Shown here piece after piece: positions 28,168-37,265 of a DNA stretch of 62,274 bases. A model generated the notes under the pieces. The model saw nothing but the letters and a program-made list of their open reading frames with translations, was not told where the DNA came from and searched no databases. Numbering within the stretch: position 1 is the stretch's first letter; each line of letters starts with the position of its first letter. A program made the position numbers and the translations under genes. Source of the DNA: a virus. The DNA lies in the IMG/VR virus record IMGVR_UViG_3300037419_000445. One strand, given 5' to 3'.

Positions 28168-29463
28168 ATGGGTCTTTTCGATGGATGGTTCAGCAAAACT
28201 ATCGACCTAAATGCGTCTAGCGAGCCGTTTTGGCGCGGATTTTTTGGTTCCGGTAGTACATCCGGTGAAGTCGTCACATTCGACAAGGCCCTGCAACTCG
28301 ATGCTGTATGGGCGTGCATAAACCTAGTTAGTAATGCTGTCGGGACGTTGCCTTGTGTTGTGTATGGCGATGACGGAGTTACACCGGCAAAAGACGACGA
28401 CCTGTATGGTCTTTTGCACGATTTACCAAACTATGACGACACTGCGCCAGAGTTCTGGACGATGGTCGCCTTCTGTCTGTGCCTAGACGGAAACTTCTTT
28501 GCGGAAATTAAGCGTTCTGGCGGGCGAATTATTGCGTTAAATCCGCTGCATCCACTCGCCGTTCAGGTTCGTAGGGATCCGCAAAAAGGCTTTGCGCGCT
28601 ATTACGACTATACAGAGCGCTATTACGAGCAGGCGTCTGTTGCCAAGCGACGCATTGAAGAGAAGGACATGTTCCACGTCCGCGGCCAGCTAATGCCGCA
28701 GTGTGACAGGGGACTTTCTCCGATTGCATTCGAAAGAAACTCGCTAGGTAATGCGATTTCTGGTGAGAAAACCGCCGGCAAGATGTTCAAGAACGGCTTG
28801 ATGTCGTCCTTGATTGTCAGTTCAGACCAAATTCTTCAGGCTCCGCAGCGCAAACAGATTGCTGATACGCTTACGCAGTTCGCGGGCGCTGACAAAGCTG
28901 GCGGCGTTACGGTTCTTGAGGCCGGGTTTAAGCCTTATCCGATGTCGATTAAGCCATCGGACGCGCAGATGTTGGAGTCGCGTCAGTACAGCGTCGAGCA
29001 GATTTGCCGCATTTTCGGTGTGCCTCCGGTGATGATTGGCCACGCGGCGAACGGAACGACGACGTGGGGCAGCGGAATTGAGCAGTTAATTCTGCAATTC
29101 AGCAAAACATGCCTTCTCCCAATGCTGACTCGCATTGAGGCGGCGATTTATCGGGATTTGTTGACACCGGCAACGCGCAAGACGCGGACGGTAAAGTTCA
29201 ACCTTGATAAATTCCTTGAAGGCGACAGCGTTGCGCGGGCCACGTTCCTCACGAAAATGTCTGACAGCGGCATTTACACGAAGAACGAAGCACGAGCTTA
29301 CGAGAATAAGCCCCCTATGGACGGCGGCGATAATCTCATCGTCAACGGGGCGATGACGAGGCTGGATAAGTTGGGCGAAGTGCCAGTTGCACCGCTTCCG
29401 CAGCCACCAGCAGCAAATACCAACGAGAAGCCGGTGCCTGCAGCGCCGAAGAAAGCCGCGTAG
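28168..29463 (+). CDS. portal protein (HK97 family)
   Basis: ALQLDAVWACINLVSNAVGTLP...QICRIFGVPPVMIG. The C-tail has the variant AANTNEKP. Confidence 0.9.
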   Translation: MGLFDGWFSKTIDLNASSEPFWRGFFGSGSTSGEVVTFDKALQLDAVWACINLVSNAVGTLPCVVYGDDGVTPAKDDDLYGLLHDLPNYDDTAPEFWTMVAFCLCLDGNFFAEIKRSGGRIIALNPLHPLAVQVRRDPQKGFARYYDYTERYYEQASVAKRRIEEKDMFHVRGQLMPQCDRGLSPIAFERNSLGNAISGEKTAGKMFKNGLMSSLIVSSDQILQAPQRKQIADTLTQFAGADKAGGVTVLEAGFKPYPMSIKPSDAQMLESRQYSVEQICRIFGVPPVMIGHAANGTTTWGSGIEQLILQFSKTCLLPMLTRIEAAIYRDLLTPATRKTRTVKFNLDKFLEGDSVARATFLTKMSDSGIYTKNEARAYENKPPMDGGDNLIVNGAMTRLDKLGEVPVAPLPQPPAANTNEKPVPAAPKKAA

Positions 29464-30660: not shown

Positions 30661-31881
30661 ATGACTGACGTTCTTGCCGAGAAAATCGGCGAACTTGGTA
30701 ATTCGCTGGCCTCCATCAAAGAGCAGGTTGGCAACCTTGGTTCTGACTTCACCGCCAAGCTCGAAAAGGCCGGTGAGGTTTCTGCTGAACTGAAGGAAAA
30801 GACCGACAAGGCGCTTTCTGAACTTGGTGAGGCTGTTACTCGCCTCGGCGAGCTTGAGAAGCGCGCCGCGCGTGAGAAGGACACCCCGCAGGCTGGTAAG
30901 GTTATGGACCTCGGCGACCATCTGGTTGCTTCCGAGCAGTTCAAGGCGACCGATATGACGGGCGGCTGGCGTGGCGCGATCCGTGTTGGCGTTGAGCGTG
31001 CTGACATCACTTCGGCTGACACCTCTGTTGGCGCAGGCCGTTCGGCGGGCACGTCGTTGGTTCCCGGCGCTCGCGTCCCCGGCATCGTCACACCTCCGCA
31101 GCGCAAGTTGACCATTCGTGACTTGATCGCACCAGGCCAGACGGCGTCCAGCAACGTCGAATTCGTCAAGGAAACGGGCTTCACCAACAACGCCCGTCCC
31201 GTGACGGAAGGCCAGACCAAGCCGAAGTCTGACATCACGTTCAACATGGCGTCTGCACCTGTTCGCACGATCGCCCATATCTTCAAGGCATCGCGCCAGA
31301 TCCTTGACGATGCTCCTGGTCTTGCGAGCTACATCAATGCTCGTGGTACCTACGGTCTGAAGTTCGTTGAAGAAACTCAGCTTCTGACTGGCAACGGCGC
31401 TGGCCAGAACCTGAATGGTATCGTGCCGCAGGCGACTGCTTACGCGCCGTCCTTCAACGCTGCCGATGAGCAGGCAATCGATCGCCTGCGTCTTGCACTG
31501 TTGCAGGTTATTTTGGCGAACTATCCGGCGTCGGGTTTCGTTCTCAATCCGGTTGATTGGGCGCGCATTGAACTGACCAAGGATACGCAGGGACGCTACA
31601 TTGTTGGTAACGCTGCGTCGCCGATTGGACCGTCGTTGTGGAACCTTCCGGTTGTTGAGTCGCAGGCAATGACGTCTGGTGAGTTCATGACCGGTGCGTT
31701 CAATCTTGGTGCCCAGGTGTTCGACCGTATGGGTGTTGAGGTTCTTCTGTCGACCGAGAACTCGGACGATTTCGAGAAGAACATGTGCACCATTCGCGTC
31801 GAAGAGCGCATTGCCCTCGCGGTGTATCGCCCTGAGAGCTTCGTCGCCGGCGATATTGCCACCATGACGACCGCTGCCTAA
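30661..31881 (+). CDS. major capsid protein (HK97 fold) with an N-terminal coiled-coil delta domain
   Basis: TIRDLIAPGQTASSNVEFVKETGFTNNARPVTEGQTKPKSD...VEERIALAVYRPESFV. Confidence 0.9.
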   Translation: MTDVLAEKIGELGNSLASIKEQVGNLGSDFTAKLEKAGEVSAELKEKTDKALSELGEAVTRLGELEKRAAREKDTPQAGKVMDLGDHLVASEQFKATDMTGGWRGAIRVGVERADITSADTSVGAGRSAGTSLVPGARVPGIVTPPQRKLTIRDLIAPGQTASSNVEFVKETGFTNNARPVTEGQTKPKSDITFNMASAPVRTIAHIFKASRQILDDAPGLASYINARGTYGLKFVEETQLLTGNGAGQNLNGIVPQATAYAPSFNAADEQAIDRLRLALLQVILANYPASGFVLNPVDWARIELTKDTQGRYIVGNAASPIGPSLWNLPVVESQAMTSGEFMTGAFNLGAQVFDRMGVEVLLSTENSDDFEKNMCTIRVEERIALAVYRPESFVAGDIATMTTAA

Positions 31882-31888
31882 GTAAAAA

Positions 31889-31916
31889 TGTGGTGGGTGC
31901 TTAGGTGCCCACCACA
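31889..31916 (+). other. Stem-loop directly after the capsid gene
   Basis: TGTGGTGGGTGC-ttag-GTGCCCACCACA forms a 12-bp stem with two G-U pairs. No U-tract follows, so it is a possible attenuator or RNA-stability element. Confidence 0.35.
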
Positions 31917-31937: not shown

Positions 31938-32354
31938 ATGAAAATACGCGCATTAAAAACTACGACTGGATTACCGAGAGGTAGTGTCGGAGATGTAGAT
32001 GAAGGCGTTGGGAAAGAACTTATTGCCCTAGGTTACGCAATCGAAGTTTTGCCTCTTGAGAAGCAGGAGGCGGCCTCTTTAGTTGCCGATAATGACAACG
32101 ACCCTTTCGTAGCCGCGCACCAGAATGGTTCCCAGACTGGCGCGGATGCACAGCAGTCATCGTTGCCGGCGGACCAAGTGCAAAAGACGTTGACCTGTCC
32201 GCCGTCCGAGGACGAAGAGACGCAAACGGACGACCAGTTAAAGTCCTCGTCATCAACGATGGATTCAGGCTCGCCCCGTGGGCAGACGCACTCTATGCCT
32301 GCGACCACGACTGGTGGAAAGCGCGGCAGGGGGCGACCTCGTTCGAAGGGCTAA
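31938..32354 (+). CDS. small head-module protein (zero-frame product). Only about the first 57 aa look genuinely coding.
   Basis: MKIRALKTTTGLPRGSVGDVDEGVGKELIALGYAIEVLP resembles the common small ORF after capsid genes. After ADNDNDPF (32085-32108) the frame becomes low-complexity. Confidence 0.45.
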   Translation: MKIRALKTTTGLPRGSVGDVDEGVGKELIALGYAIEVLPLEKQEAASLVADNDNDPFVAAHQNGSQTGADAQQSSLPADQVQKTLTCPPSEDEETQTDDQLKSSSSTMDSGSPRGQTHSMPATTTGGKRGRGRPRSKG

Positions 32355-32782
32355 AGATTTCGCAAGATGGCTATGCGCCAGATCCAAAGTGGGGACTGCG
32401 GTTAGTAACCTTGGTCCGCAATGACGACACACTTCTGTTTAATCGCTTTGGCGAAATAGGGTGGGGCGGTAATGGCGGATTTCACGCTCTAAACATCGCC
32501 ATCCAGTTCGGCGCACGCCGCATTATCCTAGTCGGGTATGACATGCGTGTTGATCTTGGCACTCACTGGCACGGCGATCACGAAAACGGACTAAACAATC
32601 CTGTAGACGCAAACGTTTCTCGGTGGCGCCGAGTTTTGGATGCCCAGTCCGGATTGCTTGAGCGGTTAGGTGTTGAGGTGTTGAACGCCTCCCCAGTTAG
32701 CTCACTTCAAAAATACCCGAAGGTTGATTTTGCTGCGGCTGTGGGCCAAGCGACAGGAAACACGCTAAATGCCGCTGCTTGA
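32096..32782 (+). CDS. MptE/DUF115-like (Maf-type) Rossmann enzyme. The ORF has no in-frame ATG/GTG/TTG before 32411.
   Basis: Hand-translated frame: ...CTAVIVAGGPSAKDVDL...VLVINDGFRLAPWADALYACDHDWW...GWGGNGGFHALNIAIQFGARRIILVGYDM. The coding character clearly extends 105 codons upstream of the track start. Confidence 0.6.
   Translation, partial: QRPFRSRAPEWFPDWRGCTAVIVAGGPSAKDVDLSAVRGRRDANGRPVKVLVINDGFRLAPWADALYACDHDWWKARQGATSFEGLKISQDGYAPDPKWGLRLVTLVRNDDTLLFNRFGEIGWGGNGGFHALNIAIQFGARRIILVGYDMRVDLGTHWHGDHENGLNNPVDANVSRWRRVLDAQSGLLERLGVEVLNASPVSSLQKYPKVDFAAAVGQATGNTLNAAA
32102..32108 (+). promoter_or_regulatory. Candidate -1 programmed frameshift heptamer C_CCT_TTC with a downstream hairpin (32113-32145)
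   Basis: The X_XXY_YYZ pattern is in the zero frame of 31938-32354. The -1 frame opens at 32096, after a TGA at 32093-32095. The stem CCGCGC(ac)CAG/CTGGCGCGG starts 4 nt downstream. Confidence 0.45.
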
Positions 32783-33146
32783 TATCGACCTTGTTAAGTC
32801 GCACTTGCGCGTTGACGATACTGACTCCGACACGCTGATTGCGGCATATCAAGGAGCCGCAGAAGAGGCGATCGAGCAGTATCTTGACCGCGATATTTAC
32901 CTGGCCGGAACAAGTCCGACAACGGCAGACGGAATTGCATTAAATCCAGCGATTACTGCGGCGATCCTGTTGCTCATTGGCGATATGTATGCCGACCGTG
33001 AAACGGAAGATTCTGATTTCCAGCGGCGCGCGCCTCCTGGCCAAAACGCAGTATTTCCAAGACAGGTTCGCGCCTTGCTCGCGCCATACCGCGTTTGGCG
33101 AATTGTGAGCGAGAGCGCAAGCTATTATGGATACGACTGCATCTAA
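32769..33146 (+). CDS. head-tail connector (gp6-like / QLRG-type) protein
   Basis: LDIDLVKSHLRVDDTDSDTLIAAYQGAAEEAIEQYLDRDI. Confidence 0.65.
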   Translation: MPLLDIDLVKSHLRVDDTDSDTLIAAYQGAAEEAIEQYLDRDIYLAGTSPTTADGIALNPAITAAILLLIGDMYADRETEDSDFQRRAPPGQNAVFPRQVRALLAPYRVWRIVSESASYYGYDCI

Positions 33147-34089
33147 AAGGCCCCTGCTTCTGCAAGGAATGCACGGCCTAGGCGATAACCTCCATCAGCG
33201 CGCCGTTATACGCCAGTTGATGCAGCGCTACGATGTTACACTAGAGTCCTCGTGGGTTGCCCCGTATTACGACCTTATTGCGCAAGGCTTGCGCGTTATC
33301 AATAAGCCTACGGCACTTCGGACTCAGTCGAAGAACGCAAAGAGAGAGCGCGGAAAGTTTTCAACAGGTGTGCCGGCAGGCGCCAGAGTTCGCAAAGTCT
33401 GGTACGCGCCTCAAGAGGTTCGGCAGTGCCGCGGTGTTTTGGCCGCTATGTGCCTCAACTGCGATGTAAGTTACGACAGGGCCGACTTCCGAATTCAAGT
33501 GCCGGCAGAATGGGTAAATGCAGCGCGCGCCGCCGTTGGATATCCAGACAAGCCAATTCTGGTTTACCGCCCGCTGGTAGAGCGTACCGAATGGAATGGG
33601 TGCGCAGCACGTAACCCCGACCATGACGCTTACTATGCGTTGTTTAGGTCTGTGAGAGACAAATTCCACGTCGTTTCCATCGCGGACTTGGTGCCTGGTG
33701 TTGAGTGGACAGTAGGCCATGATGTTGAGGACGACCAAAGGTTCCACTTTGGCGAACTGCCTTTTGAGACTTTGGCTGGTCTGTTTTCTATTTCTGCATT
33801 GGCGCTTGCGGCGCCTGGGTTCGCGGTAATTCTGGCGCAGGCTGTAGAGACACCAGTTTGCGGTGTGTTTGGCTCCTACGAGGCAAGTTACAGCTTTAGC
33901 GGCGGCGCTCGCTGGTCCCCATACTTGGGGATTGACCCAAATACGCCATGCGACGACTTCAAGCACGATAATACCAAGGACAAGTCTATTGATATCGATG
34001 CAGCCAGCGCGAGACTTGCCGTATTCGCCGACGAAGCGATCAAGCGTTACAATCAACGCACCGAAGATAGACTTGGAAGGGCTGCATAA
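33127..34089 (+). CDS. GT9-like glycosyltransferase (heptosyltransferase family)
   Basis: The N-terminus is LLLQGMHGLGDNLHQRAVIRQL. The C-terminus AAPGFAVILAQAVETPVCGVFG parallels the GT9 DSGPMHLAAALGTPVVALFG. Confidence 0.55.
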   Translation: MDTTASKRPLLLQGMHGLGDNLHQRAVIRQLMQRYDVTLESSWVAPYYDLIAQGLRVINKPTALRTQSKNAKRERGKFSTGVPAGARVRKVWYAPQEVRQCRGVLAAMCLNCDVSYDRADFRIQVPAEWVNAARAAVGYPDKPILVYRPLVERTEWNGCAARNPDHDAYYALFRSVRDKFHVVSIADLVPGVEWTVGHDVEDDQRFHFGELPFETLAGLFSISALALAAPGFAVILAQAVETPVCGVFGSYEASYSFSGGARWSPYLGIDPNTPCDDFKHDNTKDKSIDIDAASARLAVFADEAIKRYNQRTEDRLGRAA

Positions 34090-34603
34090 GCGCTATGTCC
34101 ACCCCGGCGAGTTGGACGTTCTGGCTTACTTGCTAAAAGGCGCGCGTACCGTAGTTGAATTTGGATGTAACAACGGTCGCACTGCAGCCGCCATGCTGCG
34201 AAATGTATTAACGATCAATCGATACGTCGGCGTTGATGTGCCAGTTGGATACAAGTTCGCATGCAACGTGCAGCGTAACGAGACTCCACAGATTGCTGGT
34301 GAACTTGCGCTGTCGGACAGGCGATTTGAACTTGTTCTGCGAGAACGCGGTTCGTTCGACTTAACCGCAGAAGACCTACCAGCCTGCGATGCGGTTTTTA
34401 TCGATGGCGATCACAGCGAGCCGGGCGTTCTGAATGATTATGCATTGGCTAAAGCTATCGTTCGCCGTGGTGGCGTTATTGTTTTTCATGACGATAACGG
34501 TCTTAGCACTGTTGATGTTAGCCGCGTGCTTGATGATTTATGCGACGGCGGAGCGGACATTACGCACGTTGCTGGCACATGGCTTGCGTTTGAGAGGGTG
34601 TGA
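34073..34603 (+). CDS. class I SAM-dependent methyltransferase (Methyltransf_24-like)
   Basis: VVEFGCNNGRTAAAML and AVFIDGDHSEPGVLNDYALAKAIVRRGGVIVFHD. The start is uncertain (TTG at 34073 or 34112). The track ORF 33863-34603 overlaps the previous gene. Confidence 0.6.
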   Translation: MEGLHKRYVHPGELDVLAYLLKGARTVVEFGCNNGRTAAAMLRNVLTINRYVGVDVPVGYKFACNVQRNETPQIAGELALSDRRFELVLRERGSFDLTAEDLPACDAVFIDGDHSEPGVLNDYALAKAIVRRGGVIVFHDDNGLSTVDVSRVLDDLCDGGADITHVAGTWLAFERV

Positions 34604-36831: not shown

Positions 36832-37265
36832 GTGCTGACGGTTCGATAGAACTTGTATGGGCTGACGAAACGCGGCGCTTTCGCATTGGCATCGGAGAAT
36901 TCCGCTCCCTTCAAGAAAGCGTAAATTCTAGGCGCGTCTTAATCGGGGCACAGCCAGTTGGTCCTGGTGGCCTGCTTGATCTTTTACGCACCAAAAATGC
37001 GTGGCCGGATGACGTTCGTGATGTGCTTAAGGCCGGCCTAATTGGCGGCGGTCTGGAGTTTCAAGAGGCAAATAAACTTCTGGTGCGTCATTTCGACGGG
37101 AAGCCACTTCTTGAGCATTCCAAGACGGCGTTTCCAGTGCTTCTCGCCGCTCTAGTCGGCGTTCCAGACGATGAGCCGTCAAAAAAAAAGACGGAAGCGA
37201 CAGTGACGACGGAGAAGACGGACCAATCCAATTCTCTGTCGTCTACGGAAACGGTGCAGCAATAG
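36828..37265 (+). CDS. tail assembly chaperone (G-like, zero-frame product)
   Basis: IELVWADETRRFRIGIGEFRSLQE is GTA-type TAC-like. It lies immediately upstream of the tape measure gene. Confidence 0.7.
   Translation: MSADGSIELVWADETRRFRIGIGEFRSLQESVNSRRVLIGAQPVGPGGLLDLLRTKNAWPDDVRDVLKAGLIGGGLEFQEANKLLVRHFDGKPLLEHSKTAFPVLLAALVGVPDDEPSKKKTEATVTTEKTDQSNSLSSTETVQQ

Follow-up and report, generated by a model that had tools for sequence, protein, structure and literature searches.

To our knowledge, conserved programmed frameshifts of tailed phages are essentially those of the tail-chaperone genes G/GT together with a few capsid extensions. Here, we investigated a locus that would be a second widely conserved case, this one in the head module. 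It lies at positions 31938–32782 of a viral DNA stretch of 62,274 nucleotides (IMG/VR record IMGVR_UViG_3300037419_000445); this full stretch is referred to as the window, and all coordinates refer to it. The locus consists of a small head-module open reading frame (ORF) overlapped, in the −1 frame, by the gene of an MptE-like enzyme that lacks a start codon of its own. Judging from the comparisons described below, a programmed −1 frameshift at the slippery heptamer C_CCT_TTC very likely fuses the two. The same arrangement occurs in alphaproteobacterial, Halomonas, and Pseudomonas (D3/PMG1-type) phages and prophages. The searchable literature, which included the PRFect paper and the review by Atkins (2016) but not the genome papers of D3 and PAJU2, gave no earlier description of this frameshift. 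The mechanism appears to be of a known kind, and the gene family would be new for frameshifting.

Like this locus, the tail-chaperone genes G/GT of lambda-like phages have a conserved −1 shift within a phage structural module that gives two products with a common N-terminal part. The product ratio is fixed there, and the heptamer varies by lineage while the layout is kept, as is also the case here. However, the genes described here lie between the capsid and head-tail adaptor genes, and the extension is an enzyme rather than a domain that binds the tape measure. The slippery sequence is C_CCU_UUC rather than the A_AAA_AAG or G_GGA_AAG of G/GT, and the overlap between frames is long (~80 codons) and dual-coding.

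The closest logic is that of the OrfA/OrfAB genes of IS3/IS911, where a small binding protein is made in frame, a start-less catalytic domain is made only as a −1 fusion, and the enzyme is scarce. Those elements differ in having A_AAA_AAG-type sites, defined stimulators (Shine-Dalgarno, hairpin, or pseudoknot), and unrelated proteins; here, we found no conserved stimulator. Frameshifting is also described for capsid genes. In T7/T3 gene 10A/10B and in the major head protein gene of Lactobacillus phage A2, −1 frameshifts give a C-terminally extended product (PMC5009743; PMC10885494). These shifts extend the capsid protein by a short or Ig-like domain, whereas here a separate small protein gains a whole enzyme.

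Layout of the two overlapping frames

The gene order in the window is protease, capsid gene (30661–31881), the frameshift locus, Ad1 adaptor, phrog_6804 protein, Methyltransf_24 enzyme, and Hc1 head-closure protein. The zero-frame ORF of the locus starts at ATG 31938, ends at 32354, and reads MKIRALK...ADNDNDPF-VAAHQ.... After TGA 32093–32095, the enzyme frame is open from 32096 up to its stop at 32780–32782. The first ATG, GTG, or TTG in this frame is TTG 32411, with zero such codons across 32096–32410. In the sequence CCCTTTC at 32102–32108, CCT 32103 and TTC 32106 are zero-frame codons, which makes it a perfect X_XXY_YYZ heptamer in register; a −1 slip on it resumes at CGT 32108. A prediction made earlier from the window alone (hereafter, the original prediction) had placed the frame opening, the missing start, the heptamer, and the landing codon at exactly these positions, and we confirm each of them. 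The features of the locus are as follows.

31938–32354, + strand: zero-frame ORF encoding the short product of 138 aa (N-domain, S/T/G/P/Q-rich tail, basic end KRGRGRPRSKG); homologous small ORFs exist elsewhere, and the tail is under selection
31938–32108, + strand: N-terminal part common to both products, 57 aa, with the folded N-domain at about residues 1–40; from PHROG 2616, AlphaFold2 (AF2), and Foldseek
32093–32095, + strand: TGA closing the −1 (enzyme) frame 6 nt 5′ of the heptamer, the 5′ limit for a productive shift
32102–32108, + strand: slippery heptamer C_CCT_TTC, base 32108 being read twice; from its register and conservation
32108–32782, + strand: −1-frame part of the long product, 224 codons plus stop, with a GT42/CstII- and MptE-like core; from PHROG 4603, AF2, and Foldseek
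32109–32351, + strand: dual-coding overlap of the short-product tail with the N-terminal third of the enzyme; from enzyme-frame synonymous diversity
32113–32145, + strand: bulged GC-rich hairpin 4 nt 3′ of the heptamer; a predicted fold, unsupported as a conserved stimulator
32319–32351, + strand: basic, AT-hook-like C-terminus of the short product, KRGRGRPRSKG, lying over enzyme residues ...DWWKARQG...; from RGRP recurrence and the lowest synonymous diversity

The complete trans-frame protein is 281 aa. Its predicted junction tryptic peptide is QEAASLVADNDNDPFR, and the zero-frame counterpart is QEAASLVADNDNDPFVAAHQNGSQTGADAQQSSLPADQVQK.

Next, we asked where the enzyme frame could be entered. 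Alignment of homologues shows that a near-invariant family motif, P-x-W-F-P-D-W-x-G...GPS, is encoded from 32117, counted as five codons past the heptamer. The frame is thus coding well before TTG 32411, as originally proposed. Since the frame opens at 32096 and the near-invariant motif is encoded from 32117, the enzyme must be entered within ~7–8 codons (32096 to ~32117). The ten codons from the frame opening to the motif are CAA CGA CCC TTT CGT AGC CGC GCA CCA GAA, with no near-cognate start among them and no Shine-Dalgarno sequence 5′ of them. Near-cognates in the enzyme frame begin at ATC 32159 and CTG 32195, and all are 3′ of conserved residues. By our own estimate, using 1/256 per position, the chance of finding a perfect in-register heptamer in those ~7–8 codons is ~3%. 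The third-position G+C content by frame around the site was uninformative.

We found 290 homologues of the enzyme, most of which are 205–225 aa long and start at a Met of their own shortly before the motif. Six of them (P0004, encoded at locus L006, and P0018, P0022, P0023, P0089, and P0116) are extended N-terminally, in frame, by a segment alignable with the small ORF of the window. In-frame fusions exist in nature, and therefore the fused N-domain/enzyme is a real architecture. All annotated records that we examined split or truncate the enzyme gene, and gene callers use internal starts in relatives such as P0002 (173 aa) and Tetraselmis viridis virus S20 (TvV-S20; CDS 1783–2253). A frameshift at this position would correct a systematic misannotation, in which the enzyme appears as a “hypothetical protein,” truncated or overlapping, in TvV-S20 and PMG1 and among many metagenomic proteins.

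The two-frame layout is conserved across distant relatives

We assembled a comparative set of 101 related loci (18 viral contigs, 80 genome contigs, 1 Logan contig, and 2 annotated phages) and placed the N-domain and the enzyme core with hidden Markov models (HMMs) in all three forward frames of each locus. At 29 of the 102 loci surveyed, the N-domain ORF lies directly 5′ of an enzyme that is read in the −1 frame and has no start codon ahead of its core. The enzyme was in the +1 frame relative to the N-domain ORF at none of the surveyed loci. The 29 frameshift loci form 16 clusters at 60% identity, and the minimum pairwise identity is 31%. They include the isolate genomes of Ensifer sp. MPMI2T, Nitratireductor indicus C115, Filomicrobium insigne, Paracoccus denitrificans DSM 413, two Halomonas, and Pseudomaricurvus, and the layout is also found in the sequenced phages TvV-S20 and PMG1 (D3-like). 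Conversely, the enzyme has its own start at all 58 loci without a detected N-domain. When the junction is compared across related phages, own starts are therefore seen only in homologues without a detected N-domain 5′ of the enzyme. The L006 locus is the sole in-frame fusion among the surveyed loci, and L038 was uninformative (assembly gap).

Nine more homologues (L040, L052–L055, L070, L073, L075, and L076) have no start before the core and no HMM-detected N-domain. Slippery motifs are present in at least three of the nine, namely C_CCT_TTC in L055, G_GGA_AAG in L075, and C_CCT_TCG in L076. These loci may be frameshift fusions to divergent or different 5′ domains.

TvV-S20 (locus L020; NC_020840 30662–34315) is an “algal virus” placed in Caudoviricetes. 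Its site reads TGA|CCC TTT G and follows a DDDD run, and its N-domain ORF has a much longer K/P-rich linker.

The slippery site

CCCTT is present in the right register at 20 of the 29 frameshift loci, compared with 1 of 51 own-start loci (Fisher p = 5e-11). The “PF” dipeptide is missing from the own-start proteins. Because CCCTT is concentrated in frameshift loci and “PF” is missing from proteins with their own start, the constraint acts on the nucleotides and not on the protein. With 29 loci that share the two-frame layout and the missing start at identities down to 31%, and with CCCTT in register at 20 of them, the comparison strongly supports the frameshift fusion put forward in the original prediction.

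The form C_CCT_TTN is found in the window and in L001–L005, L007, L009, L015, L020 (TvV-S20), L022, L023, L046, and L055. Its seventh base is free to vary and can be C, A, T, or G. At least seven loci have C_CCT_TCN, which keeps CCC-TTC in the enzyme frame and breaks the perfect heptamer. Alternative heptamers are G_GGC_CCN (L008, L011, L012, L030, and L036), G_GGT_TTG (L087), and G_GGA_AAG (L075), and PMG1 has C_CCA_AAG 24 nt before the enzyme core. Two loci, L015 and TvV-S20, locate the shift precisely, because their −1 frame becomes open only at the CCC itself (TGA|CCC TTT). For comparison, in Escherichia coli the most shift-prone A-site codons are UUN and AAN, all-pyrimidine heptamers are favored, and the most efficient motif is C_CC.A_AA.G, at 54% with a pseudoknot; heptamers without a stimulator shift ~2–10 times above a background of ~0.05% (PMC4066793).

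The window has a second frameshift site, the canonical G/GT site of the tail chaperone, and its presence in the same genome also speaks for the proposed shift. A_AAA_AAG at 37184–37190 is genuine, as had been predicted, and its 73-codon −1 extension ends at the start of the tape-measure gene. At both sites in the window, a −1-frame stop lies 6–9 nt 5′ of the heptamer (32093–32095 and 37172–37174), and a −1-frame TGA is also found 0–6 nt before the site in L002, L003, L005, L009, L015, and L020 (TvV-S20). Such a close stop may guard against premature productive shifting, or it may be a coincidence.

Search for a stimulator

The original prediction had also pointed to a hairpin 4 nt downstream of the heptamer. 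The hairpin, CCGCGC(ac)CAG...CTGGCGCGG at 32113–32145, is indeed at this distance and forms in the minimum-energy fold, but a role as a conserved stimulator is not supported. Its stability is ordinary for the composition (z = −0.8; 40 of 200 shuffles fold at least as well), and its 3′ arm consists of the conserved D-W-R-G codons. Folding 3′ of the site in 24 frameshift loci was no stronger than at the equivalent position in 48 own-start controls (mean z of −0.74 vs −0.38, p = 0.18), and RNAalifold on 14 frameshift regions gave no consensus structure and no compensatory changes. We therefore do not regard the hairpin as a conserved stimulator; in this phage it may nevertheless act. By inspection, there is also no consistent Shine-Dalgarno-like sequence 5′ of the site across loci. 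Synonymous variation is lowered in codons 0–20 past the site, which is compatible with either an RNA element or a second coding frame.

Among the frameshift loci, only L087, a Pseudomaricurvus hydrocarbonicus prophage with G_GGT_TTG, has a markedly stable structure at the site, a 70-nt fold (~1520–1600) of −36.2 kcal/mol with z = −5.9. It may be a genuine stimulatory element that is missing from other lineages. In the window, an AGGAGG lies within the conserved KQEAA codons (32060–32075), ~32 nt 5′ of the heptamer. It is conserved in the close clade only and is too distant for a classical Shine-Dalgarno-type frameshift stimulator. A terminator-like scan match also falls in this region, at 32049–32073.

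Both products are under selection

After the heptamer, the zero frame was originally described as degenerating. This description does not stand. The tail is of low complexity, but it is conserved, is longer than in controls, ends in RGRP, and limits synonymous change in the overlapping enzyme codons. The zero-frame tails of frameshift loci have a minimum of 25 aa and a median of 42.5, whereas the same frame in own-start loci has a median of 20 and a minimum of 0 (p = 7e-5). The S/T/G/P/Q fraction of the tails is 0.57, compared with 0.40 in controls, and a basic cluster sits at the end. RGRP is present in 8 of 26 zero-frame tails and in 0 of 48 controls. It appears in about three independent lineages and sits over different segments of the enzyme in the window and in L001. 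Homologous small ORFs are also called in other contigs (P0121, P0122, P0124, P0125, and P0128).

For the 6 sequences of the window’s clade, the enzyme frame has a synonymous diversity of 0.28 over the 84 overlap codons, compared with 0.51 past the overlap (permutation p < 2e-4), while amino-acid divergence is alike in the two regions (0.24 and 0.21, respectively). Synonymous diversity is lowest, at 0.10, over the KRKRGRPRS end of the short product and returns to 0.54 right past the zero-frame stop. The halving of enzyme-frame synonymous variation over the overlap means that the short product is under selection too, and these patterns indicate dual coding, with both the 138-aa and the 281-aa products under selection. 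The locus would thus provide a natural long dual-coding overlap together with a C_CCU_UUN site that seemingly lacks an obvious conserved stimulator. It should be useful to frameshift prediction tools, which are trained almost wholly on tail chaperones.

Predicted structures of the enzyme and the N-domain

The enzyme matches PHROG 4603 (“alpha-2,3-sialyltransferase”) with E = 7e-45. The AF2 model of the trans-frame protein has a predicted local distance difference test (pLDDT) score of 88.7 and a predicted template modeling (pTM) score of 0.81; the core is above 93, the N-domain ~75, and the linker ~57. A Foldseek search with the core returned, as best matches, CstII (PDB 1ro8) with E = 3e-5 and a template modeling (TM) score of 0.45–0.50, as well as the MptE-type archaeal HPPK (PDB 8sd5) with E = 2e-4. 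The fold matches that of the CstII (GT42)/Maf-type/MptE-like proteins, although identity to them is only ~14% at TM ~0.45–0.5. The earlier label of “MptE/DUF115-like” is thus upheld at the superfamily level by PHROG 4603 and the fold, but not by Pfam, where the match to PF01973 (MptE-like/DUF115) scores 20.6 bits against a gathering cut-off of 34.6 with 31 residues aligned. Several homologues of the enzyme do carry precomputed PF01973 matches. On the modeled fold, the enzyme is a superfamily-level relative of CstII (GT42)/MptE and is probably a nucleotide-sugar-dependent transferase.

The N-domain belongs to phrog_2616, whose sibling families phrog_5463, 933, and 7993 are also small phage proteins. 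Modeled alone (AF2, pLDDT 70), it has a beta-beta-alpha-beta fold, which is shared by many small uncharacterized Caudovirales proteins. Nearly all of its top 50 PDB matches are the N-terminal domain (NTD) of ribosomal protein bL9, with probability up to 1.00, a target-normalized TM of up to 0.86, and E-values of 0.02 or worse; the best matches have 22–30% identity and a root mean square deviation of ~1 Å over 38–40 residues. Unlike bL9, the N-domain heads a phage family, phrog_2616, from head modules, and no sequence-profile link joins the two. The N-domain profile matched no L9 chain among PDB sequences, and a Pfam search with 15 N-domain members gave no L9 match, only faint DUF7210 and DUF7302. 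Overall, Pfam, NCBIfam, and PDB sequence-profile searches with the N-domain returned nothing usable. A phmmer search of 1.8 billion representatives gave only four similar small ORFs and spurious repeat proteins, and the profile had one match in a set of 5.8 billion sequences.

According to the recoding literature, the reading frame is maintained less strictly when bL9 is lost. We think it very improbable that the N-domain is a true mimic of the rRNA-anchoring bL9 NTD and that the short protein or the fusion docks at, or competes for, the bL9 site. If it were, mimicry would place either the basic tail or the enzyme at the translation machinery, with possible feedback on the efficiency of the phage’s frameshifts, both at the enzyme site and at G/GT.

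We also compared the N-domain with the DNA-packaging chaperone gpFI of phage lambda, whose gene likewise lies between those of the major capsid protein and the neck (lambda E, FI, FII) and which has, as here, a two-part architecture with a long flexible linker. In gpFI, however, the domain order is reversed, and there is no frameshift and no enzyme. Aligning the N-domain by hhalign with the C-terminal domain of gpFI, reportedly found to be the head-binding domain by Popovic et al. in 2012, gave a weak match with P = 8e-4 and a probability of 25%. Homology to gpFI is thus no more than a lead; the PHROG differs (phrog_92 for gpFI, and 2616, 5463, 933, and 7993 for the N-domain), and Packaging_FI was matched by 1 of 15 members at E = 0.087.

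Proposed mechanism and alternative explanations

In the mechanism that we propose, translation begins at ATG 31938, and two proteins would come from this one initiation. Most ribosomes would keep the zero frame and make the 138-aa protein, with its bL9-NTD-like N-domain, flexible S/T-rich tail, and basic RGRP end. A minority would slip by −1 on C_CCU_UUC, with Pro-tRNA moving from CCU to CCC and Phe-tRNA from UUC to UUU, and would read CGU 32108 next. The slipped ribosomes would produce the 281-aa fusion of the N-domain to the CstII-MptE-like transferase, and this would be the only expression route of the enzyme. The sequences themselves show the two-frame anatomy and its conservation, and they also show the slippery motif and selection on both frames; we infer that the shift is ribosomal, that it takes place at this heptamer, and that the ratio of short to long product is high. 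Since no conserved stimulator was found, the efficiency is presumed to be low to moderate, and a low efficiency may suit an enzyme needed in catalytic amounts. If the enzyme exists only in fused form and slippage determines the ratio, this would point to targeted modification, possibly glycosylation, during head assembly. Speculatively, the N-domain could serve for docking, so that both products reach a common head-assembly partner, and the enzyme, together with the phrog_6804 protein and the methyltransferase, could modify a virion or host component. The S/T-rich tail of the short product would be a candidate substrate.

Several points weigh against a programmed shift of this kind. The perfect heptamer is absent at 9 of the 29 loci, most of which have C_CCT_TCN, so strict two-tRNA slippage is not universal. 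PMG1 has an in-frame GTG 24 nt 5′ of its heptamer, where an ordinary start is possible. Neither a conserved 3′ structure nor a 5′ Shine-Dalgarno-like stimulator is present in the compared loci; the efficiency may be very low, or a stimulator may have gone unrecognized. Furthermore, only folds and gene position suggest the roles given to the N-domain and the enzyme.

A variant of the mechanism in which a single tRNA slips, tRNA-Pro moving from CCU to CCC on C_CCU with the following U(U/C) kept by context or for the Phe residue, is possible but unlikely. What the 20 of 29 loci have in common is CCCTT and not the entire heptamer, and where C_CCT_TCN is found, an A-site tRNA-Ser could not re-pair with UUC. 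C_CC.U is also one of the six tetramers active in E. coli, but there the tetramers worked only with a strong pseudoknot (PMC4066793). The perfect heptamer is nevertheless present at most loci, including the window, with its seventh base free as tandem slippage expects, and other lineages have swapped in other perfect heptamers (G_GGC_CCN, C_CCA_AAG, G_GGA_AAG, and G_GGT_TTG).

Explanations that dispense with ribosomal slippage fare worse than a −1 frameshift at the heptamer. It is improbable that there is no recoding and that the enzyme starts at a non-canonical codon near its N-terminus, or that only the C-terminal 123 aa are made from TTG 32411. That codon is the first canonical start, gene calls in relatives use similar internal starts, and PMG1 has its GTG before the core. 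However, a start at 32411 would remove the near-invariant W64, P66, W68, G79-P80-S81, D123, and W126-W127 as well as the first Rossmann-like strands of the confidently modeled core, and the open frame 5′ of the conserved residues is kept without a start codon in 29 loci. A non-canonical start was rejected from the ten codons available, which hold neither a near-cognate nor a preceding Shine-Dalgarno. There is an even slimmer chance that a 1-nt assembly or sequencing error, or a recent pseudogene mutation, has broken what is truly an in-frame fusion like P0004. Such fusions do occur naturally, and the window is a single assembled sequence. Yet the same break, direction, and motif recur in 29 independent assemblies from differing studies, hosts, and technologies, finished phage genomes included, and on this recurrence we reject both error and pseudogene; in addition, both frames are intact and under purifying selection, and CCCTTT is not a long homopolymer prone to miscalling. 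For RNA polymerase to slip productively, the template must hold at least ~7 identical A or T residues in a row. The site here has only C3 + T3, and the sites of other lineages, such as GGGCCCN and CCCAAAG, are heptamers of the ribosomal type. Slippage of RNA polymerase, by which the frame would change on the mRNA and not on the ribosome, is thus scarcely credible, even though some bacterial and phage genes do obtain two products in this way (PMC5009743).

Neighboring genes and upstream stem-loop

The Ad1 adaptor gene (32769–33146) is followed by the gene of the phrog_6804 protein (33127–34089), a 320-aa protein with no Pfam, NCBIfam, or PDB relatives. The enzyme, the phrog_6804 protein, and the Methyltransf_24 enzyme form a cassette interleaved with head-tail adaptor genes (window 32769–34603). 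In PAJU2 (L102 1486–3429), an enzyme with its own start, a phrog_6804-like ORF, and a methyltransferase are likewise together, at another position. The three proteins probably act together. TvV-S20 has two further genes after the locus, for a glycosyl transferase and a second “sialyltransferase.”

A further feature lies upstream of the locus.

31889–31916, + strand: stem-loop of 12 bp without a U-tract, between the capsid gene stop (TAA 31879–81) and the start of the small ORF

The stem-loop has a fold of −23.7 kcal/mol and z = −3.1, with 1 of 200 shuffles as good. A terminator scan gave no call at this stem-loop, and PMG1 has an annotated terminator at the matching position. It may be an attenuator or an mRNA-end hairpin that lowers expression of the genes 3′ of the abundant capsid gene.

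Judging by its Hint, intein-splicing, and LAGLIDADG domains, the 792-aa portal protein encoded by the close relative L001 (Logan contig SRR15237813_52591), at 1–228, contains an intein. Unlike L001, the portal of the window (28168–29463, 431 aa) has no intein domains. Lastly, the listed methyltransferase ORF of the window (GTG 33863) overlaps the preceding gene by ~230 nt; the true start is probably near 34070, matching the 178-aa call in L001.

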